From positions 1-62,821 of the forward strand of contig JBKOZJ010000015.1 of the NCBI GenBank assembly GCA_046725875.1: 62,821 bases of DNA, read 5' to 3'. Positions within the stretch are counted from its first letter, which is position 1; every line of letters starts with the position of its first letter. This document shows positions 20,305 through 29,848 of the stretch, piece by piece. The translations under genes and the position numbers were made by a program. A model generated the notes under the pieces. It did not search any database. It saw only the letters and a program-made list of their open reading frames with translations, and was not told the origin of the DNA. The DNA comes from Actinomycetota bacterium. GTDB lineage: Bacteria; Actinomycetota; Actinomycetes; JAKEEW01.

Positions 20305-20377
20305 TGCGGCGGAAACTGGCGGCGTGAACCAGTCCCGCGTGGCCGGCTCGGCTAGCCAGTGATCTCGGTAACGGCCG

Positions 20378-20403
20378 GGAATCACAGCGGCATTACGGCT
20401 GTT
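20378..20403 (+). promoter_or_regulatory. SigR/SigH-dependent autoregulatory promoter
   Basis: Exact GGAAT-N18-GTT consensus upstream of sigR. Confidence 0.85.
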
Positions 20404-20628
20404 GCGCACCACGAGGGCAGTTCCGCACCCAGATGTCGTACACCCAAACAAGGAGGCACCGAGCGCATGCTCGTTGACGGCGCGAGCCGGATCTCCCCGC
20501 TTGACCTGCCCGAGTGGCCGATCGGCGGCGGATCGGCGCACCGACTATCCTCCCGCTCCGGAATGGGTAAGCATGAACCCGTGGTCCGGCGCGGTAGCGT
20601 CGGTGGCGAGTCGGAGGAGGTGGGTCCG

Positions 20629-21225
20629 GTCGCCGAGACCACCGCGGAGCGCACGGCGAGGTTCGAGCGGGATGCGCTGCAGTATCTCGACCAGCTCTAC
20701 TCGGCTGCGCTGCGGATGACCCGCAATCCCGCCGACGCCGAGGACCTGGTCCAGGAGACATACGCGAGGGCCTACGCGTCGTTCCACCAGTTCCAGGAGG
20801 GCACGAACCTCAAGGCCTGGCTCTACCGGATCCTCACCAACACGTTCATCAACTCCTACCGGAAGCGGCAGCGGGAGCCGCAGCAGAGCGGCGCCGAGGA
20901 TGTCGAGGACTGGCAGCTTGCCCGCGCGGCGACGCACACCGCGACCGGCCTGAAGTCCGCCGAGGCGGAGGCGCTGGAGCATCTGCCGGACTCCGACGTG
21001 AAGGAAGCGCTGCAGAGCATTCCAGAGGAGTTCCGGATGGCGGTCTACCTCGCCGACGTCGAGGGCTTCGCGTACAAGGAGATCGCCGAGATCATGGGTA
21101 CGCCGATCGGTACGGTCATGTCGCGGTTGCACCGGGGACGCCGCCAGCTTCGGGAACTGCTCGAGGAATACGCTCGTGAGCGCGGCCTGGTGCCCGCGGA
21201 CGCAGGGAAGGATTCGGGCGCATGA
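20629..21225 (+). CDS. sigR: ECF sigma factor SigR/SigH (thiol-oxidative stress)
   Basis: [49 protein letters not shown]. Start proposed at GTC 20629; alternatives GTG 20620 and, for a long isoform, ATG 20467. Confidence 0.95.
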
Positions 21226-21503
21226 GCTGCGGCAGGCCGCACGAGACCCCGTGTAGCGAGGTGCTCGACGCGGTGTTCGAGTATCTCGACCACGAGATGG
21301 CCGACCCTTATCGCCGGGCGAAGATCGAGCAACACCTCGACGAGTGTGGGCCCTGTCTGGAGAGGTACGGCCTCGAGAAGGTCGTGAAGGCACTGGTCCG
21401 GCGCAGCTGCGGCCACGACGAGGTGCCGGCGGAGCTACGCGGAAAGGTGCTCGCGAAGATCCGTGCCGTCCGTATCGAGATCGAGACTCGCGACGCGCTC
21501 TGA
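21222..21503 (+). CDS. rsrA: Zinc anti-sigma factor RsrA/RshA
   Basis: [18 protein letters not shown] (HxxxCxxC); ATGA coupled to sigR. Confidence 0.95.
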
Positions 21504-21528
21504 TCAACATCGCGATGCGCTTTGATCA

Positions 21529-21564
21529 ACATCGTGCCGGGCTATCAATTTGCTCGGCACGATG
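21529..21564 (+). terminator. Probable intrinsic terminator after sigR-rsrA
   Basis: CATCGTGCCG...CGGCACGATG stem followed by ATTTCAATTTT; preceded by duplicated TGATCAACATCG. Confidence 0.55.
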
Positions 21565-21990
21565 ATTTCAATTTTGTCGCTTCCTTATTCACCAGCGGCT
21601 TTCTTCGTGCCCACCAGCCGTTCGGGTGAATTGCCACTCTTGGTATTCACTTGAATGCGACATGTACTTGTCAAGAGTCTCATTGTGCGCTTTGCTTGAT
21701 CAGAGGCCGTGACCTTGGATACGGAGGCTCCTGCGGCTCTGCATTTCGGGGTTACGGCGAAGAGCACAACACATCTGGTCCCGACTCCATCGTGGCCTGG
21801 CCAGCGGAAACGCCTGCACCCACACTCCGGGTGCCCGGATAGCCGGTCAATTGGATTATTATTTCCCGGCCTGGCATTAAATAACGCGGGAATTTGCTTA
21901 CGGAAAGTAGCCGTGACATAACTTGACGCTACCGTTAGCTCAACCTTTCACTTGTCCTGAAGGTCAAAATCGGCCGCTAAAAGGAGTCCC

Positions 21991-22056
21991 ATGAAACGTA
22001 TTAGGACCTTGGTCGAGCGCTTTCTCATGTCAAATGCGGAAACGCACTGGCGATGA
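21991..22056 (+). CDS. 21-aa micropeptide MKRIRTLVERFLMSNAETHWR
   Basis: AAAAGGAG SD directly upstream of ATG; below the ORF-track cutoff. Confidence 0.6.
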   Translation: MKRIRTLVERFLMSNAETHWR

Positions 22057-22101
22057 CCATTTGTCCCAAGTGGCCGTCAGCTGAGCCGAAGGAGGAAAGC
22101 A

Positions 22102-22131
22102 GTGGCGCCAACGCCGACTTGGAACTGGTGA
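22102..22131 (+). CDS. 9-aa micropeptide MAPTPTWNW
   Basis: AAGGAGG SD (22089-95) 6 nt upstream of GTG; TGA at 22129-31. Confidence 0.5.
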   Translation: MAPTPTWNW

Positions 22132-22259
22132 GTCCTGATTCGAGGGCAGGTCGGGCCTACTGAGCCGTAGTGCGTCGGATTCAGCAAGATCAACTGATGC
22201 GGTTTGTGCTCGTCGGCCCTATCCTCGGATCAATGCCCGGCCGGCCCTCAAGGAGCGAG

Positions 22260-23669
22260 ATGCGACGGCTTCCGTTGCTCGCTCGGATCTACATTGCAGC
22301 GACGTGGCTCGCGGCGCTAGCGATCTTCGCCGTGATCCCGTCGTTGGCTGTCGATTGGTGGACGTTGGGCACGCTTGCCGTCGCCTATCTTGCCGCTGAG
22401 GTGGCAGCGAGCATCAATCTTCGGCGCACTGTGACTGTGTCCGTCTCTTTCCCCCTTGCGCTCGCCGGTGTTCTTCTTCTTCCTCCGAGCGCGGCGGCCC
22501 TTGTTGTCGCGACCGTCGTGTTCGCTGATCCGCAGCATCGAAGGTCGTGGACAAAACGGCTCTTCAACGGGGCGATGCAAGCATGCTGTGCGGCCGCGGC
22601 TGGAACGGTCTACCAACTCACCGGTGGCGGGCACGAGATCGCGAGCGGAGATTCCCTCTTCCTTCCACAGGCGTTGCTCGCAGCCATCACCTACTGTCTC
22701 GTGAACGGCTTGCTGCTGGCGGGAGTCCTGAGGACGGCGGAGGGCCTATCGCTGCCATCGGTTTGGCGGTCGATGCTCTCCAGCTCCATCGCAGGCTACC
22801 TCGGCTATGGGCTCGTGGGCGTGATCATCGCTGCCCTCTGGCATGCTGAGGGCGGCCGCGTTACCGCGCTCCTGGTCCTGTTGCCCTTGTACGTCGCACG
22901 GTGGGTGTTCGCCCAGTATGCGGAGGAGCGCGAGGCTCACGAGGCATCGGTACGCGCCCTCGTCCAAGCTGTCGAAACAAAGGACCACTACACGCGGGGT
23001 CATAGCGAGCGCGTCTCTCGGGCGTCTGTCATGATCGCAGAGCAGCTGGATCTAAGCGAGGATCGGACGGAGGCGCTCCGACTCGCCGGAATGCTTCACG
23101 ACTTGGGCAAGCTCAGTGTCCCTACCCGCTTGCTGCAGAAGTCCGGACCACTCACCGAAGCCGAATACGAAGCGATTCAACTCCACCCGGTTCGGGGCGT
23201 GGAGGTCGTCCGCGGGATCGAGTTCCTCCGGGAGGCATACAACGGAATCCTTCACCACCACGAGCGGTTCGATGGGCGTGGATACCCGCACGGGTTGGCT
23301 GGTCATCGCATCCCGGAGTTCGCCCGGGTGATCGCCGCGGCAGACGCGTTCGACTGCATGACTTCCACCCGCGCGTACCGGAGTGCTCGCAGCATCGACG
23401 AAGCCCTTGCCGAGCTTCGGCGTTGCGCCGGCGCCCAGTTCGATCCGGAGATGGTTCGAGCGCTCGAGAAAGCCGTCGGGACGAAGGGCTGGGATCCCGC
23501 GCTGGCGCCGGCGGCGACAGAGGTTCTCGATTTGCTGTCCGCGCAGTTCGACCACGACGACCCGACTGTCCAGGTGCCTTTGATTCGCGATGGTCAGCCG
23601 ACGGCGGTCGAGCCGACAGTGCGGATCGGTCCGCGTCAAGGGCGTGACCCCGGCGAGGAGTCGCAGTGA
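22260..23669 (+). CDS. Multi-TM HD-GYP c-di-GMP phosphodiesterase (HdgA-like)
   Basis: Hydrophobic N-half; KDHYTRGHSERV, LHDLGK, HHHERFDGRGYP, ADAFD..TSTRAYR; AAGGAG SD before ATG 22260. Confidence 0.92.
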   Translation: MRRLPLLARIYIAATWLAALAIFAVIPSLAVDWWTLGTLAVAYLAAEVAASINLRRTVTVSVSFPLALAGVLLLPPSAAALVVATVVFADPQHRRSWTKRLFNGAMQACCAAAAGTVYQLTGGGHEIASGDSLFLPQALLAAITYCLVNGLLLAGVLRTAEGLSLPSVWRSMLSSSIAGYLGYGLVGVIIAALWHAEGGRVTALLVLLPLYVARWVFAQYAEEREAHEASVRALVQAVETKDHYTRGHSERVSRASVMIAEQLDLSEDRTEALRLAGMLHDLGKLSVPTRLLQKSGPLTEAEYEAIQLHPVRGVEVVRGIEFLREAYNGILHHHERFDGRGYPHGLAGHRIPEFARVIAAADAFDCMTSTRAYRSARSIDEALAELRRCAGAQFDPEMVRALEKAVGTKGWDPALAPAATEVLDLLSAQFDHDDPTVQVPLIRDGQPTAVEPTVRIGPRQGRDPGEESQ

Positions 23670-24949
23670 GCGCAGCGGCTCCAATTGTCAATCGGGTGCA
23701 GCCATCCATCGCGCCGGTGCTGGTCGCCGCGGCGGGTGTATTTGTCACGACGGCGGTTGCGGTTACCGCCGCGGGCGGCCTTATCCAGCCATCGATCGCG
23801 GTTGCATTTGGGCTGATGATCGCCATCGGCGAGCTCGTGCGCATAACACTGCCTGGCGAGCGTGAGACGGCCCCGATTGGTGCTGCTGGCGCTCTCGCCT
23901 ATGCGCTCCTTCCGGCGATCGGCACGCAAACAGCCGAGCACGGTGCACTTCAGGTGGTTGCGGTGACCGCGGCCGGGATGGCACTCGGACTGCTACCCCA
24001 CGCCCTCGCTGGTCGCTCGCCCAGCATCGACTACCCGGCGCGCCGGATCCTCACGGTCGGCTTTGCTGCGTTGCTTTTCAGGCCGATCTACGTGGATCTC
24101 CCTCCTGCGGTGCTGGTCCGAGGCGTTGCTCTTACCGCATTCGTCGTCGTCGTTGCCGTGCTCGCAACCTTTGCCGATGCGTTGCTCGCCGCGGCCATGC
24201 GCCGCAGCCGGCTCGGAACCCCGCTCGGCCCAGCCTTCCAAAATGAACTACGGGCGCTGGCTGGCATCAGCTCGGCGATCGGTGCGACCGGCATCCTCGT
24301 CGCCCTTGCCACCGGCGTTATGGGATTGTGGGCGATTCCGGTTCTGTCCGTGCCGCTCCTGCTCGCCCAATTCTCCTTCCGCAGGTACTCGTCCATCCGA
24401 TCTACATACCTGCAGACCATCCGCGCCCTGGCGCGCGTGACCGAGCTTGGCGGCTACACCGAGACGGGCCACGCCGAACGCGTCGCCCGACTCGCCACGG
24501 CTGTCGGCAAGGAACTCGGCATCAGCGACGCCGAGCTTTACGACCTCGAGTACGCGGCCCTGATGCATGACATCGGCCAGCTCTCGCTAACGGATCCGAT
24601 TCCGGGAGGCGTAACTGTGATCCTCCCCGATTCCGAGCAGCGCCGCATCGCGCGGCTTGGTGCTGAAGTCATCCGGCAGGCGAAGGCGCTCGACTCGGTC
24701 GCCTACATCGTCGAGCGGCATGCGGACACCTATCGCGGACCTGACGGCGAACCAGATCCGACGCTGCCGTTGGCGAGCCGCATCATCCGAGTCGTCAACG
24801 CCTACGACGACCTGGCCAGCAACGTAGCCGACCCCGCTGGCCGAGCTCGCGTTCTCGAGCGGTTGCGGATGAGTGCCGTGTTCGAGCTCGACCCACATGT
24901 CGTCGAATCTCTGACGCGGATCCTTGACCGCACAGTGGTGTACGTCTGA
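23666..24949 (+). CDS. Multi-TM degenerate HD-GYP protein (HdgB-like)
   Basis: GHAERV and MHDIGQ present; HHE/GYP motif absent; GTGA coupled to previous gene. Confidence 0.88.
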   Translation: MSAAAPIVNRVQPSIAPVLVAAAGVFVTTAVAVTAAGGLIQPSIAVAFGLMIAIGELVRITLPGERETAPIGAAGALAYALLPAIGTQTAEHGALQVVAVTAAGMALGLLPHALAGRSPSIDYPARRILTVGFAALLFRPIYVDLPPAVLVRGVALTAFVVVVAVLATFADALLAAAMRRSRLGTPLGPAFQNELRALAGISSAIGATGILVALATGVMGLWAIPVLSVPLLLAQFSFRRYSSIRSTYLQTIRALARVTELGGYTETGHAERVARLATAVGKELGISDAELYDLEYAALMHDIGQLSLTDPIPGGVTVILPDSEQRRIARLGAEVIRQAKALDSVAYIVERHADTYRGPDGEPDPTLPLASRIIRVVNAYDDLASNVADPAGRARVLERLRMSAVFELDPHVVESLTRILDRTVVYV

Positions 24950-24950
24950 C

Positions 24951-26291
24951 GTGTTCGAGTCCGTCCTGGTCGCAAACCGCGCCGAGATAGCCCGACGCAT
25001 CATGCGGACCGCCGCAGCCATGAACATCAAAACCGTCGCCGTCTACAGCGAGGCCGACGCAGCGCTGCCTTTCGTCCAAGAGGCGACTGAGGCGATCCTC
25101 CTCGGGCCCGCACCGCCAGCCCAGAGCTACCTCGATGTAGCGGCGATCCTCGAGGCCGCTGCGCAGAGCGGGGCGGAGGCGCTCCACCCCGGGTACGGGT
25201 TCCTAGCGGAGAACGCCGACTTTGCTCAGGCCGTACTCGAGGCAGGCCTCGTGTGGATCGGTCCGACGCCGGATGCGATCGCGCGGATGGGCGACAAGAT
25301 CGAGGCACGGAACCTGATGGCAGCCGCCGACGTACCGACCGCGCCCGGATCAACTGCACCGGTCGCGACGGTTGATGCCGCGGTCGAGGAGGCGGCCGCG
25401 ATCGGCTACCCCGTGATGGTTAAGGCCGCGGCGGGTGGCGGCGGGATCGGGATGGGAGCCGCACAGGATGCGGATGCGCTTCGCCAGGTGTTCGAGACCG
25501 CCCGTACCCGCGCTGAGCGGTTCTTCGCAAACCCCGCGATCCTTCTGGAACGGTTTGTTCCACGCGCACGGCACGTCGAGGTTCAGATCCTCGGGCTCGC
25601 CGATGGCGGGGTGGTGGCGCTGGGGGAGCGGGACTGCTCGGTGCAACGCCGGCACCAGAAGATTGTCGAGGAAACACCGTCCCCGGGCTTGCCTGAGGAT
25701 GTACGCGAGCGGATGCTTGCCGCGGCCGTCCGAGCCGGAGAGGCGGTGGAGTATCGCAACGCGGGCACTGTGGAATTCCTCGTCGATCTGGATCGACCGG
25801 GCAAGTTCTACTTCCTTGAGATGAACACCCGCCTGCAGGTCGAGCACCCGATCACCGAGCTGGTTACCGGGATCGATCTGGTCGAGCAGCAGTTCACTAT
25901 CGCCGCGGGCGAGCCGGTCAGCTTCGATCCGGACACGATAGCTCCTACCGGACACGCAATCGAGCTGCGTGTGTACGCCGAGGATCCCGTGCGGTTTCTC
26001 CCCGGGCCGGGGAAGATCACTGCCTGGCGCGAACCGTCCGGCGACGGCATCCGGGTGGATGCCGGCTATGCCGAGGGCACGGCGGTCACCCCTTTCTACG
26101 ACCCGCTCATGGCCAAGCTGTGCGCGTGGGGTCCGGATCGCATCACAGGCCTCGATCGGGCAGCCAGCGCGGTAGCCGAGTTCGTGATCGAGGGTCCGAA
26201 GGCTAACCTCCCCTTCTTCACGAAGCTCCTGGCGAACGAGGAGTTTCGCACGGGCTCCTACGACACGGGCATCATCTCGCGCGTCTCCTGA
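24951..26291 (+). CDS. Biotin carboxylase (stand-alone, acyl-CoA carboxylase alpha-like)
   Basis: ANRAEIA, HPGYGFLAEN, RDCSVQRRHQK, EMNTRLQVEHP. Confidence 0.93.
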   Translation: MFESVLVANRAEIARRIMRTAAAMNIKTVAVYSEADAALPFVQEATEAILLGPAPPAQSYLDVAAILEAAAQSGAEALHPGYGFLAENADFAQAVLEAGLVWIGPTPDAIARMGDKIEARNLMAAADVPTAPGSTAPVATVDAAVEEAAAIGYPVMVKAAAGGGGIGMGAAQDADALRQVFETARTRAERFFANPAILLERFVPRARHVEVQILGLADGGVVALGERDCSVQRRHQKIVEETPSPGLPEDVRERMLAAAVRAGEAVEYRNAGTVEFLVDLDRPGKFYFLEMNTRLQVEHPITELVTGIDLVEQQFTIAAGEPVSFDPDTIAPTGHAIELRVYAEDPVRFLPGPGKITAWREPSGDGIRVDAGYAEGTAVTPFYDPLMAKLCAWGPDRITGLDRAASAVAEFVIEGPKANLPFFTKLLANEEFRTGSYDTGIISRVS

Positions 26292-26419
26292 TCGTCGCCG
26301 GCCAACACAGGTCTCGTTGGCAAGGCGAGCGGGACCAGCCGCGGATGGCCGCAGGGTAGCTGCATGATTGGATGCGACCAGGCGGTGGGACGCTGGTGGT
26401 CACAGTGAAGGGAGCGGCG

Positions 26420-26635
26420 GTGGCCGAGGAGATCAGGGCCGAGATGGTGGCCAACGTCTGGAAGGTCGTCGCCTCTGAGGGCGACACGGTTGAGGACGGC
26501 GACACCATTGTCATCCTCGAGTCCATGAAGATGGAGATCCCGGTCGTCGCCGAGTCACCTGGCCGACTCACCCAGCTCAAGGTCTCCGAAGGCGACATCG
26601 TCCAAGAAGGCGACCTCATCGCCGTCATCGGCTGA
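26420..26635 (+). CDS. Small biotin carboxyl carrier protein (TB7.3-like)
   Basis: AEMVANVWKV and LESMKMEIPV biotinylation motif. Confidence 0.93.
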   Translation: MAEEIRAEMVANVWKVVASEGDTVEDGDTIVILESMKMEIPVVAESPGRLTQLKVSEGDIVQEGDLIAVIG

Positions 26636-29600
26636 TGGTGCTAGTAGAGGCGACCTTAGGCATTTCCTCTGCACCAGTTTGATCTCTCATGCTGTCGTCG
26701 GCCAGATGTGTCGAGGCGATCACCTGCCTCTCTGCTTTCATGTAGCTCTCTATTGTCTTCCGGCTCTGGGGCTCCTCCTCGGTAACGTCGATACCGAGCG
26801 ATCCGAGATACAGCCGGTTTATGAGGCCTCGCGGGGGATTGGGCAGGCCGGCCCAGACCTGACGTCCCAGATCGAAGAGGTTCTTATCTTGCTTGTCCTG
26901 TCCACGTTCCCTGGCGAGCCGGGACTGGGTGAAGAGCGCGATTGCCAGTCCATAGCTGTCTCCGGACTTCTCGATCACAGGACGCGCTGCCGCCAACAAC
27001 TTCTCTGCCTCATCAAGCCGCTTGGTTCGCACACATAGATCAGCTAGACAGGCTTCGACGGTGGCTCTCCGCCAGTGATCTTTCTCGCGGAGAAACTCAC
27101 CGCGCGCCGCCCCGAGATGCTGTTCGGCCTCCTCGAACAACCCCTCGAGTGTAAGCATCCGGCCGAGTTCGCGGAGTAGGTCGCCAAGTGCAGCGTTCGT
27201 TTGCTGTGCTTCCCGCAATGCCGCTCGGAGGGCCCATATCCCCGACTGCAGGTTTCGCGCGGCGAAACATCCAATCGAGTAGAGGACCTTCGCAGTTTCG
27301 AGTTTGTTGTCGGTTCGACGCGCGATCGCGAGTGCTCGGCGTAGTTCGAGGCGAGCGTCTGCAGCGGAACCGAGATTCGCGAGGCAACTTCCGAGCAGGC
27401 GGCGACCCTCGACCTCCAACTCCAAGTCCCCTAGCTGGTGGCGCACCTCCACAACTCGTTGCGCTATACCGACGGTTTCCCTCGGGCGATCTCGAAGGTC
27501 GAGCATGTGCCCAAGGCGCCGCAGCAAAGCCGCTTCGCCTTTAAGATCTCCCGCGTCCCGAACATGAGGGAGAACCTGGTTAATGAGCCGTACCTGCGAA
27601 TCGACGTCACCGTGGCGGTCAAGCTCATAGAGGGCTCGCTGGGCAAGGAGCCATCCGTGCAAGACATCTCCTTGAACTACCGCCCGCAGCGCCAAAGCCT
27701 GCATGAAAGACAGCTCGGTGGTAAGCAGAACCCGCGGCGCTCGCTGCGCCGAATCAGCGAGATTGTCCGGTGGCTTCCACAAGCCATCTGGAAGTCGATC
27801 AAGCGGCCACCTAGGCGGCATGGCACGGGCCGCTATGTCCGACGCCACGAGAAGCGCCCCGATCACGCGAGTTAGCCAAGCACGGCGATCGCCTTCGTCG
27901 TCGGAGTCGCTGAGTTCGGCCGCGACCAGTTGAACCAATGGGTGAAGGTGGTAGCGCACTTCACTACCTGGGGCGCTCGAAGCTTCAACCAGGTGGGCCT
28001 CGACGAGCGTGTCGAGGAGTTGATGGGCCTTCGCTGAACGATCGTCAGTCAGTGCATTGGCAACCCAGCTCGGGAAGTCGGGGGCGCGAAGCGCTCCCAG
28101 GAAGCGGAAGAGCCGCTGCTCTTCAGACATGAGGCGGTCATACGAGAGCTTGATGCTCGCCCGGACCTCGAGGTCGCCCATCTTCAGCCAGTCGAGACGG
28201 TTATGTTCGACGGCGAGGATGCGCTCCAGCTGGCTCACCGAGAGGTGGGGATGAGTCGCGAGGCGAGCGGCGACTATCCGGAGCGCCAGCGGGAGTCCGC
28301 CGCAGTGAGCGATAAGCGCGTCGGAGGCGGCCGGCTCGGCGCTTAGCCGTTCCCCTCCAGAGATGGCGGCAACCATGTCGCGTGCCTCTCCGCCGCCGAG
28401 CGGTTGGAGAGTGAGCCGGCGCAGGCCCTCGAGGCCGGGCAGGATGCCTCGGCTTGTCATCAGGAGTGCGGTACGCGATGTGCCGGGTAGGAGATGGCGG
28501 GCTTGCTCCTCGTCGAGGACGTCGTCGGCCAAGATGATGAGGGCACGGTCTGCTATCGCCGAACGGTATAGGTTGACCCGGTCGCTGATGGACTCCGGGA
28601 TGGCCGTACCGCGGAAGCCGAGGCTGGTCAGGATGGTGCCGAGTGTGGCCTCGATCGCGACCGGGGTGCCGTTGGGTTGTCGTAGCCGGACGAACAGCTG
28701 CCCATGGGGAAAGTCGTGCGTCGCATGGTGGGCGGTGTGGAGGGCAAGCGCGGTCTTGCCGATACCCGCCGGGCCAGAGATGAGAATCCAGCGCGATCCG
28801 GGGCTGTGGAGGAGAGCGAGCAGGGTGTCCCGCTCGGCCGTACGACCGGTGAAGTCGGGTACCGTGGGCGGGAGCATGCGTGGGATCACCGGAGTTGCTG
28901 CCGTACCTCCAGGAGCGAGAACCGGTGCTTCCGCGGAGCCATCGAGTATCCGTTTGTGCATCTCGCGCAGCGTTGCGCCAGGCTCGACGCCCAGTTCCGA
29001 AACGAACAGTCTGCGCGCCGACCGGTAGACCCCAAGGGCATCCGCCGTTCGTCCGCAACGATGTAGCGCGGTCATCAGCTGCAGTCGAAGGCGCTCGTCG
29101 AGCGGCTGCTCGGCGACAAGCTGCGACAGTTCGCCGATCAGCTCCGTGCACCGACCACATGCCAGGTCGGCATCGATTCGGTCGGCGAGGGCCGCATCGT
29201 GCTCCTGCCTCATGGCGTGTGCGAGCCGCCGTATCTCGGGCAGGGCGATGTCCGCGTACGGCTCCTCATCATGCCACCGTGAAAGCCCACGGCGAAATAC
29301 AGAGGCAGCCTCGCTGGCTTTGGCCGCACTGAGCAGGGCGCGCCCCTTCTCGACATCTTCGAGAAACGAGTGATAGTCGATGGATTCCTTGGGAAGGGCA
29401 ATCATGTAGCCCGGCGCATGAGTTCGCAGGACGCCCCTTGCCAGCGCTCGGGCCTCAAGGACGCGTCTAAGCATTGAGACGTAATGCTGGACCTGCACGA
29501 TCGCCGAAGCGGTTGGCTTGTTCTGCCAAAGCGCATCGACCAAGTGATCTACCGATACCACTCGCCCGATATGTGCTAGGAGGATCGCCAGAACGGCGCG

Positions 29601-29696
29601 TTGCCGCGGAGGCCCAAGGTCAAGCGGGGTATCCGCCCGCCAGGCCGCCACCGGACCCAAGACCTGGAACCGTAAGTCAAACTCATCGGCGGTCAT
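26625..29696 (-). CDS. AfsR/SARP-family regulator: wHTH-BTAD-NB-ARC-TPR
   Basis: LRFQVLGPV, PLDERL..QLM.AL.RCGR..DAL, ELGVEPG, PDFTGR, GPAGIGKT P-loop, CGGLPLAL, RYHLHPLV; C-terminal helical repeats. Start 29696 or 29765. Confidence 0.93.
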   Translation of the reverse strand: MTADEFDLRFQVLGPVAAWRADTPLDLGPPRQRAVLAILLAHIGRVVSVDHLVDALWQNKPTASAIVQVQHYVSMLRRVLEARALARGVLRTHAPGYMIALPKESIDYHSFLEDVEKGRALLSAAKASEAASVFRRGLSRWHDEEPYADIALPEIRRLAHAMRQEHDAALADRIDADLACGRCTELIGELSQLVAEQPLDERLRLQLMTALHRCGRTADALGVYRSARRLFVSELGVEPGATLREMHKRILDGSAEAPVLAPGGTAATPVIPRMLPPTVPDFTGRTAERDTLLALLHSPGSRWILISGPAGIGKTALALHTAHHATHDFPHGQLFVRLRQPNGTPVAIEATLGTILTSLGFRGTAIPESISDRVNLYRSAIADRALIILADDVLDEEQARHLLPGTSRTALLMTSRGILPGLEGLRRLTLQPLGGGEARDMVAAISGGERLSAEPAASDALIAHCGGLPLALRIVAARLATHPHLSVSQLERILAVEHNRLDWLKMGDLEVRASIKLSYDRLMSEEQRLFRFLGALRAPDFPSWVANALTDDRSAKAHQLLDTLVEAHLVEASSAPGSEVRYHLHPLVQLVAAELSDSDDEGDRRAWLTRVIGALLVASDIAARAMPPRWPLDRLPDGLWKPPDNLADSAQRAPRVLLTTELSFMQALALRAVVQGDVLHGWLLAQRALYELDRHGDVDSQVRLINQVLPHVRDAGDLKGEAALLRRLGHMLDLRDRPRETVGIAQRVVEVRHQLGDLELEVEGRRLLGSCLANLGSAADARLELRRALAIARRTDNKLETAKVLYSIGCFAARNLQSGIWALRAALREAQQTNAALGDLLRELGRMLTLEGLFEEAEQHLGAARGEFLREKDHWRRATVEACLADLCVRTKRLDEAEKLLAAARPVIEKSGDSYGLAIALFTQSRLARERGQDKQDKNLFDLGRQVWAGLPNPPRGLINRLYLGSLGIDVTEEEPQSRKTIESYMKAERQVIASTHLADDSMRDQTGAEEMPKVASTSTISR

Positions 29697-29848
29697 GAGG
29701 CAGCCCTCTGCATCGTGACGAGGAGCGTTTGGTGACGATGTCCCGTCGAACCCAGCATGGGACACAGTCGATGACTGTGCAACTCCGAAGGGTAACCGTT
29801 CGCTGCTGACGCGACCCCTCGTCTGCAGAGCGGGCCATCGTCACCGCG

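Follow-up and report, generated by a model that had tools for sequence, protein, structure and literature searches.

A conserved Trp-tail micropeptide gene upstream of hdgA and hdgB and its possible role as a partner of the HD-GYP pair

Why should two very small open reading frames (sORFs) stand directly in front of a pair of membrane HD-GYP genes, and what might their products do? The locus that raises this question lies in contig JBKOZJ010000015.1 of an Actinomycetota bacterium (assembly GCA_046725875.1); the window is the whole stretch of 62,821 nucleotides that was analysed. The source genome is metagenome-assembled, 3.76 Mb in size and 89% complete, and the HdgA proteins of its nearest sampled relatives are only 59% identical. 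The original prediction described two co-oriented sORFs with Shine-Dalgarno (SD) sequences before a coupled HD-GYP pair. Their coordinates and products were confirmed, and hdgA and hdgB indeed overlap, by GTGA at 23666-23669. We conclude that sORF1 is almost certainly a real gene functionally tied to hdgAB. Our favoured reading, to which we give a probability of roughly 0.55, is that it encodes a micro-protein subunit or ligand that would bind HdgA in its MASE9 domain, at the juxtamembrane region of the HdgA-HdgB pair. The elements concerned are as follows.

21979..21986, + strand: Shine-Dalgarno sequence of sORF1, AAAAGGAG.
21991..22056, + strand: sORF1, a 21-residue type-1 Trp-tail micropeptide gene with an ATG start, 21 codons and a TGA stop, encoding MKRIRTLVERFLMSNAETHWR.
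22089..22095, + strand: Shine-Dalgarno sequence of sORF2, AAGGAGG, with a 6-nt spacer to the start.
22102..22131, + strand: sORF2, a 9-codon W-x-W mini-ORF with a GTG start and a TGA stop, encoding MAPTPTWNW.
22250..22255, + strand: Shine-Dalgarno sequence of hdgA, AAGGAG.
22260..23669, + strand: hdgA, encoding a six-transmembrane (TM) MASE9-like domain with a re-entrant hairpin and an intact HD-GYP domain (Pfam, orthologue alignment).
23666..24949, + strand: hdgB, encoding a membrane protein with a degenerate HD-GYP domain (Pfam, alignment).

A DNA search with the spacer upstream of hdgA returned three conserved blocks in the relative G003, one of which holds a 21-codon ORF, the length of sORF1, with many third-position changes. 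Same-strand sORFs of 19 to 25 codons were found upstream of orthologous hdgA in nearly every lineage scanned; the named genomes with such an sORF are those of Sporichthya, Nonomuraea, Actinomadura, Nocardiopsis, Lipingzhangella and Trebonia and a metagenome-assembled genome (MAG) of the Jiangellales. The comparable sORFs that the original prediction had proposed to seek before hdgA orthologues are therefore present, and they are conserved in many lineages. Using a leave-out profile of ten such peptides, with the window and G003 excluded, we searched 104,588 stop-to-stop segments of the window's genome. The profile retrieved sORF1 with a genome-wide expectation value (E) of 4.4e-9, the runner-up segment having an E of 2.3. 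The family, designated type 1, has the consensus M-x-K-I-x3-V-E-x-F-L-x5-7-W-x-stop. Judged by its sequence, sORF1 belongs to it: members have 19-21 codons, this consensus, a Trp at position -2 or -1 from the stop, an SD and a place directly upstream of hdgA, from which sORF1 is separated by 204 nt. Both peptides had been described as having Trp-terminal tails, which holds for sORF2, ending in W, but not strictly for sORF1, which ends in W-R with the Trp penultimate.

Profile A5, searched over 251 genomes sampled from the class, matched 67 of them, representing 43 of 137 genera, and the gene was single-copy per genome except in G122, where it occurred in two places. HdgA itself (E 1e-50 or better) was present in 124 of the 251. 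Linkage was nearly absolute: in 63 of the 68 places the sORF shared contig and strand with hdgA and preceded it by 56-308 nt (median 79), and the other five (G003, G004, G002, G122:C33 and G210) were all at contig ends or breaks. In G004, an N-terminal piece of hdgA follows the sORF on the same contig. No further type-1 copy was detected elsewhere in G000, G003, G008 or two Streptomyces-like genomes (one complete Streptomyces genome and G034). Two unpublished genomes enter these and later counts, G020 in the 67 of 251 and both G020 and G037 in the 26 of 34 loci given below; no conclusion depends on these alone.

With 53 further fetched loci, the type-1 family comprised 61 members and 53 distinct peptides, the latter of 21 residues in 34 cases, 20 in 17 and 19 in two. 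Starts were ATG in 56 members, GTG in four and TTG in one, and an SD-like motif preceded 58 of the 61. Among distinct peptides, E9 was invariant, and K3, V8 and L12 were conserved in 49, 45 and 48 of 51, respectively; in alignment A5, M1, E9, L12 and W20 were invariant. The tails were W-x-W-x in 28 members, W-x in 22, W-x-W in 10 and of another kind in one. Pairwise comparison of sORF1 in G001, G002 and G004 revealed 6, 5 and 3 synonymous codon changes and no non-synonymous change. Between G000 and G003, 12 differences fell on third positions and 7 and 6 on positions 1 and 2. Even in distant forms, the codons of the tail varied at third positions (GGC/GGA/GGG, GTC/GTT/GTG and TCC/TCT, then TGG). 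On the evidence of these codon patterns, selection is acting on the sORF1 peptide. The stops of the 61 members were TGA in 25, TAG in 21 and TAA in 15; the share of TAG and TAA would be far above that usual for high-GC actinomycete genes.

Neither Pfam nor NCBIfam held a family for the Trp-tail peptides. A literature search, mostly at the level of titles and listings, returned no paper linking a small ORF to HD-GYP, HdgA or MASE9. The type-1 family thus appears to be undescribed so far.

In the window's clade, the stretch from sORF1 to hdgA contains a second mini-ORF of 7-9 codons, which has a strong SD and ends in W-x-W, in some cases with one residue more. A counterpart of sORF2 occupies this place in every assembled genome of the clade: MALAHWRWD in G001, MRLPSWTWG in G002, MRLPGWSWG in G004, and, in the Sporichthya group, MREENWKWG in L078, G203, G104 and G052 with a close variant in G251. 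Strong SDs precede the counterparts in G001, G002, G004 and Sporichthya, and a further counterpart occurs in the unpublished G020. The automated call flagged sORF2 in G000, G203, G251, G104 and G052 and in none of the other type-1 loci; G001 and G020 were recognised separately. The lineages with sORF2 are exactly those whose type-1 peptide has a single Trp, most others ending in G-W-x-W-x. A comparison of G002 with G004 gave differences at 6 of 27 bases in sORF2 (four synonymous and two conservative codon changes) and at 3 of 63 in sORF1; in sORF2, therefore, only the SD, the length and W-x-W have held. Mini-ORFs of at most 13 codons with a W-x-W tail number 34 on both strands of the 3.76-Mb genome, seven of them with an SD-like motif, and the chance expectation for an sORF2-like mini-ORF is approximately 0.0009 per 200 nt of one strand. 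In locus L004 (G020), the sORF2 counterpart ends a 28-codon frame with two copies of the Trp motif, as if the mini-ORF had been duplicated in tandem.

The start of hdgA is most likely the ATG at 22260, because it aligns there with the M-x-x-L-P-x-x-A-R-x-Y of orthologues. HdgA matched Pfam HD_5 with an E of 7.4e-41 and contains LHDLGK, HHHERFDGRGYP and RAYR. With its HD dyad, HHExxDGxGYP and RxY[K/R], it can be classed from sequence as an HdgA-type HD-GYP phosphodiesterase of cyclic di-GMP (c-di-GMP). The match to MASE9 (PF20972), over residues 94-249 of a 499-aa frame, stayed below the gathering cut-off of 24.3 bits with a score of 21.4 (E 2.5e-4), and our reading of the topology, six TM segments plus a short hairpin, fits MASE9. 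HdgB gave a weaker HD_5 match (E 3e-9), and has kept MHDIGQ but has no HHE...GYP. Retaining HD, lacking GYP and encoded directly after hdgA, it would be a degenerate HD-GYP partner.

HdgA and HdgB of Streptomyces venezuelae (vnz24090/vnz24095) are described as a six-TM HD-GYP protein and a six-TM degenerate partner, membrane-bound, poorly expressed and encoded in one operon, with no phenotype or known signal (PMC6205966, PMC13232838). The window resembles that locus in having a membrane pair in one operon, an intact HD-GYP gene followed by a degenerate one, and sigR-rsrA next to it; the proteins are approximately 48-50% identical to the Streptomyces pair. Galperin and Chou proposed that MASE9 binds a ligand within the membrane; according to that work, MASE9 has no known ligand and HdgA is the only MASE9 protein to have been studied (10.1101/2021.11.05.467447). 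The original prediction had placed the pair next to sigR-rsrA in Streptomyces, as we also saw, yet the Streptomycetaceae-like loci differ from the window in lacking a Trp-tail sORF: one was called in 2 of 24, which is chance level.

Other lineages keep solely the tail adjacent to the stop, G-[VAI]-[SN]-W-x or W-x-W. These divergent sORFs fall into two size classes, one of hydrophobic peptides of 25-35 aa and one of 8-9 aa. In the former, exemplified by Nonomuraea (31 aa), G008 (35 aa) and Nocardiopsis (27 aa), a hydrophobic helix precedes the tail; the latter are nearly the tail alone (MRTSGVSWG, MRASGVSWG, MREGVSWA and M(M)PEGVSWV). The 35-aa form of G008 is identical to a protein in Atlas, whose nearest clusters are labelled 'hypothetical protein' and are without a Pfam family. 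To cover such forms, a wider count accepted any sORF of at least 6 codons with a Trp at -1 or -2, at most 330 nt upstream of hdgA on the same strand. By this measure, a W-tail sORF lay upstream of hdgA in 26 of 34 non-Streptomycetaceae orthologous loci, as compared with 2 of 34 on the opposite strand and a mean of 4.8 (maximum 12) in 200 shuffles. The 34 include the window and the unpublished G020 and G037, the last with one divergent W-tail sORF. HD-GYP loci of other phyla had a W-tail sORF in 0 of 17. These counts overstate independence because the genomes are related, though many families are spanned.

In a single controlled complex prediction, sORF1 was scored as the partner of HdgA residues 1-228 and HdgB residues 1-250, and an alignment was supplied for every chain. 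Its verdict supports binding, with a score of 0.65 against 0.16 for the best of three controls: two unrelated 21-mers scored 0.01 and 0.00, and the complex with HdgB replaced scored 0.16. Runs agreed in at least 95% of contacts, and the predicted local distance difference test (pLDDT) value of the partner was at least 74. The predicted contacts are made by sORF1 residues 8-21: W20 touches HdgA 99, 102, 103, 106, 153 and 156, and L12 touches HdgA 213, 214 and 217 and HdgB 233 and 237. The peptide was placed mainly on HdgA, with merely four HdgB residues in contact. The 8-9 aa forms correspond to no more than the tail, the part of sORF1 that occupies the pocket in the model.

Every contact segment would lie on the cytoplasmic half of the membrane, as judged by the positive-inside rule; the topology is supported by the loop 89-103 (DPQHRRSWTKRLFN), the short hairpin 62-88 with its PP turn and the cytoplasmic HD-GYP domain. 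Export of the peptide would therefore not be needed. In lineages with an sORF, the contacted residues K99, F102, N103, N149, Y183 and R214 vary little or not at all. Across 26 such lineages, 18 positions of the membrane domain reach a conservation of at least 85%, and six of these are predicted contacts. In the sORF-less Streptomycetaceae, five of the six contact positions were replaced as compared with 1 of 12 non-contact positions (Fisher p 0.004), a suggestive pattern. The replacements at contacts were F102W, N103R/H, N149L, Y183H and A213S, and R214 also changed to C or W; the pocket of Streptomyces HdgA reads R99, W102, R/H103, L149, D153, H183 and W/C214.

The case for sORF1 as a micro-protein partner is that the gene is conserved and nearly always linked to hdgA, that its peptide is under selection and that the controlled complex prediction supports binding. 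From these, we infer binding in the cell, co-transcription with hdgAB and any effect on enzyme activity. The 21-residue micro-protein would be made in the cytoplasm from the hdgA-hdgB operon. Its Trp tail (residues ~13-21) would insert into the cytoplasm-facing cavity of the MASE9-type domain of HdgA, and its N-terminal amphipathic helix, with the invariant E9 and L12, would pack on the juxtamembrane helices that connect to the HD-GYP domains in both HdgA and HdgB. The c-di-GMP phosphodiesterase output of HdgA-HdgB could then be set by sORF1, acting as an allosteric ligand or a third subunit. Under this reading, sORF2 may be a lineage-specific 9-codon offshoot bearing the W-x-W motif that sORF1 lost in this clade, and may serve either as a coupling upstream ORF or as another, minimal ligand of a similar pocket. 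The original proposal that the peptides modulate the membrane sensor has thus become our leading reading, as far as the prediction that puts the sORF1 tail in the HdgA membrane domain can carry it. Its corollary of one peptide per subunit is not supported: most lineages have one sORF but both subunits, and the model has sORF1 mainly on HdgA.

Partners of this kind have precedents. MgrB and SafA, for example, are peptides with at most a few dozen residues that alter the output of the sensor PhoQ by binding to its membrane or juxtamembrane part, and the genes of such modulators are often in the regulon of the sensor or next to it. MgrB and SafA have no sequence relation to sORF1, and their target is a histidine kinase rather than a MASE9 HD-GYP phosphodiesterase pair. 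sORF1 also differs from them in its predicted site, a cytoplasm-facing cavity filled by the C-terminal Trp tail, and in its gene being fixed directly upstream of the target. If the reading is correct, a fixed micropeptide partner would offer a testable input for HdgA/HdgB and for MASE9, the first candidate of its kind, and a c-di-GMP phosphodiesterase would be added to the short list of sensors whose output small proteins are known to adjust. Dozens of genera would then have retained a single copy of a 21-codon gene that has escaped annotation.

Several observations weigh against a micro-protein partner. For stable partners acting in trans, a length of 8-9 residues is unusually small, and the fixed distance from Trp to stop and the C-rich spacers of most lineages fit a leader peptide equally well. 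No type-1 match was found in 59 of the 124 HdgA-bearing genomes, and 8 of the 34 non-Streptomycetaceae loci (L093, L096, L102, L106, L110, L112, L117 and L120) are without a W-tail sORF. Five of these eight, L093, L096, L102, L106 and L112, have nevertheless kept F102, N103, N149 and R214 in HdgA; K99 is lost in the same five. Conversely, G003 has an intact sORF1, but neither hdgA nor hdgB was found in its 95%-complete assembly, the contig ending 44 nt after the match. The three genomes of its genus, G003 included (95, 78 and 89% complete), gave no match to HdgA or HdgB, which may reflect either loss or an assembly break. Of 157 solved complexes, 116 reach the score mark of the complex prediction, as do 2 of 215 mismatched pairs; these counts are only roughly valid here, since the calibration comprised no protein shorter than 30 residues and used other alignments. 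The modelled placement of sORF1 depends on a presumed heteromer, since the score fell to 0.16 with HdgB replaced. Finally, the pocket switch is suggestive because one clade represents one event, and the positions tested are spatially clustered.

The alternative that survives best, which we consider somewhat unlikely, is that the sORFs are purely cis-acting leader peptides: a pause at the Trp codon or an arrest at the stop codon would control expression of hdgAB, and the released peptide would have no function. The original prediction had offered a Trp-sensing leader peptide as its alternative, and this is now the main rival to a micro-protein. The mechanism could be TnaC-like masking of a C-rich Rho-loading site just downstream, or translational coupling. 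In TnaC and trpL, a short ORF with an essential Trp lies just upstream of the regulated genes; tnaC has a C-rich Rho site after its stop, and trpL has tandem Trp codons near its end. Trp-codon leader peptides are also known in actinomycetes, for example those of trpE and trpRS1. In keeping with such a role, the type-1 Trp stands at a fixed distance from the stop in the three tail classes W-x-W-x, W-x and W-x-W (60 of 61), the N-terminal part varies freely among distant lineages and is almost absent from the mini-ORFs of 8-9 codons, which have strong SDs, and sORF2 evolves fast outside its SD, length and W-x-W. The sORF is, moreover, always on the hdgA strand at the distances given above, and as near as 23-33 nt in L094 and L099.

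The spacers of single-sORF lineages likewise recall the Rho-loading site behind tnaC, being C-rich and G-poor: the median C and G were 0.42 and 0.23, as compared with 0.34 and 0.34 in hdgA, and C was at least 1.5 times G in 36 of 55 spacers. In 37 of 56 spacers, the hdgA ATG is preceded at 35-55 nt by a conserved motif, GCTGCCGRTCCCCGTC, possibly a Rho-loading or protein-binding site. No pairing partner was predicted for this motif, and it is absent from the window. A coding origin of the motif was rejected, as the frame and the distance to the ATG are inconsistent and the variation is not at third positions. In L008, L005, L104, L176 and others, it reads GCTGCCG(G/A)TCCCCGTC, with CTCTC and CTTCCCC following just before the SD.

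Other evidence speaks against a purely cis-acting role. RNAalifold found no consensus structure in the region from stop to hdgA of 12 lineages (4 pairs, -1.49 kcal/mol), and pairing of the hdgA SD was as in shuffles (0.80 versus 0.79, mean z -0.01, n=48). The leader of the window folded no better than shuffles (z 0.19 for 21975-22275 and -0.35 for 22095-22275), its spacer is not C-rich (C 0.28, G 0.33), and a scan was negative for terminator-like sites in the stretch from the sORFs to hdgA. We considered a long local hairpin (~22137-22235) and dropped it, as it was no better than shuffles. The mixed stop codons argue against a mechanism tied to one release factor, and the last residue of type-1 peptides is highly variable. 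Sensing of a Trp codon needs no strong purifying selection on the N-terminal helix, which is seen across many families, and the leader model leaves unexplained the change of pocket residues where the sORF was lost. The sORFs also differ from TnaC and trpL in the absence of a detected terminator or antiterminator, in that hdgAB is unrelated to Trp metabolism, and in the strong peptide-level selection on the N-terminal helix; their Trp is at -2 or -1 from the stop, as compared with 12 residues before it in TnaC. If the cis-acting role is nevertheless the true one, the sORFs would represent a new, widely conserved Trp-dependent leader controlling second-messenger turnover. A dual role in cis and in trans is possible. 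A study of Sinorhizobium meliloti provides a precedent in peTrpL, a Trp-containing leader peptide that also acts in trans; it derives from a trp attenuator, forms ribonucleoprotein complexes and is unrelated to sORF1 in sequence and target (PMC7298713).

That the peptides are pheromones which, like ComX, XIP or SHP, are exported and then perceived from the outside by HdgA and HdgB through their membrane domains, is very improbable. Trp-rich C-termini do occur in XIP-type peptides, and some distant forms, those of Nonomuraea, G008 and Nocardiopsis, resemble a signal peptide plus a short Trp tail. Yet sORF1 and most type-1 members carry E9 and R/K10 in the helix and have no hydrophobic core, so that charged residues stand where a signal peptide is hydrophobic. 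The 8-9-mers are directly translated and have no export signal, no transporter, peptidase or modification gene occurs among the annotated neighbours, and the contacts of the model, combined with the topology proposed above, are all cytoplasmic. At the window locus, we found neither an export or processing signal nor dedicated enzymes nearby, and the analogy to ComX and XIP is not supported. That the sORFs arose by chance, as open frames in a long intergenic stretch of low GC with promoters and operators only, is scarcely credible: the spacer is indeed AT-richer than its flanks and holds noncoding blocks conserved with G003, but the leave-out profile, the synonymous bias of substitutions, the linkage to hdgA in 63 of 68 places and the low mini-ORF expectation all oppose it. 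The probability left by these readings falls to mixed or unforeseen roles.

The micro-protein partner can be extended to a joint reading that we regard as doubtful, in which the Trp-tail micropeptide is the physiological input of MASE9 and occupancy of the pocket gates c-di-GMP hydrolysis by HdgA-HdgB, linking it to the SigR-RsrA stress module. Occupancy could then be set by synthesis or turnover of the peptide or by oxidative damage to its exposed Trp. In the Streptomycetaceae, the sensor would have become peptide-independent upon loss of the sORF through a built-in Trp (F102W) and charged pocket residues, and the window's clade would have split the ligand into a single-Trp helix gene and a 9-residue W-x-W plug gene.

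The surroundings of the locus contain the following elements.

20359..21225, + strand: sigR-like gene for an extracytoplasmic function sigma factor (Pfam Sigma70_r2 and Sigma70_r4_2; ORF as listed).
21222..21503, + strand: rsrA-like gene for a zinc anti-sigma factor (Pfam zf-HC2).
21627..21702, no strand assigned: noncoding block, 79% identical to G003:C16 by alignment.
21650-21675, inside the preceding block and ~320 nt upstream of sORF1: imperfect 26-bp palindrome CTTGA-N5-ACATGT-N5-TCAAG.
21880..21990, + strand: conserved region directly 5' of sORF1 (72% identity to G003 over 21880-22025).

The gene order is sigR, rsrA, a spacer with sORF1 and sORF2, hdgA, hdgB, a biotin carboxylase gene and a gene resembling that of biotin carboxyl carrier protein. 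The true start of the sigR-like gene is probably internal to the listed ORF, and the gene is 75-93% identical to that upstream of hdgA in relatives. An rsrA-like gene was upstream of hdgA in 13 of 16 flanks of relatives and also at most named loci. The spacer between rsrA and hdgA is 756 bp long, with a GC content of 0.49-0.58 as compared with ~0.64-0.69 in the flanks. The palindrome resembles a transcription-factor operator and is a candidate for one; the region 5' of sORF1 is a candidate promoter or 5' leader. A sigma-70 promoter scan returned no sites, and an Rfam scan of 21300-22500 (E up to 10) gave five matches, all far under gathering scores. Among the sequencing runs listed for this sequence, none was of RNA, and the single DNA run had a share of 0.09. 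The single terminator-like site, at 21624-21639, was at chance level. A metagenome scan with HdgA returned solely distant HD domains, at 15 loci and with at most 51% identity.

In all three genomes of the sister genus, contig boundaries occur 0.05-3.5 kb downstream of rsrA (the end of G003:C16 and the starts of G005:C130 and G006:C92). In G003, rsrA and the sORF are separated by a 930-aa NB-ARC/TPR gene. G005 and G006 had no type-1 sORF; a weak profile match in G006 (E 0.099) was discarded, as it lies inside longer coding-looking sequence. Four loci of uncultured Actinomycetota MAGs (L093, L096, L106 and L112) share the block GCGTTAC(T/C)(C/G)T(A/G)AGTGGCG, 66-127 nt before hdgA, which is probably a -10 region. 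This block, GCGTTACTCTAAGTGGCG, was considered as the end of an sORF and instead judged a -10-like promoter box because canonical starts are lacking. The Streptomyces spacers between rsrA and hdgA (L080, L083, L085, L086, L091 and others) share the block TCAC(T/C)CGAA(C/G)GTGCTAATC and, 50-90 nt before hdgA, a TANNNT-like box such as CCTAGGCTCC or CCTATTCTC; the sequence of the window that resembles this box is CCCTATCCTC at ~22216-22225. Downstream of the pair, the biotin carboxylase ORF (24924-26291, as listed) overlaps the end of hdgB by 26 nt and is followed by a gene for an 87-aa biotin-lipoyl protein at 26372-26635. On the opposite strand, 26625-29765 encodes a 1046-aa regulator of the Streptomyces antibiotic regulatory protein type with Trans_reg_C, BTAD, NB-ARC and TPR domains.

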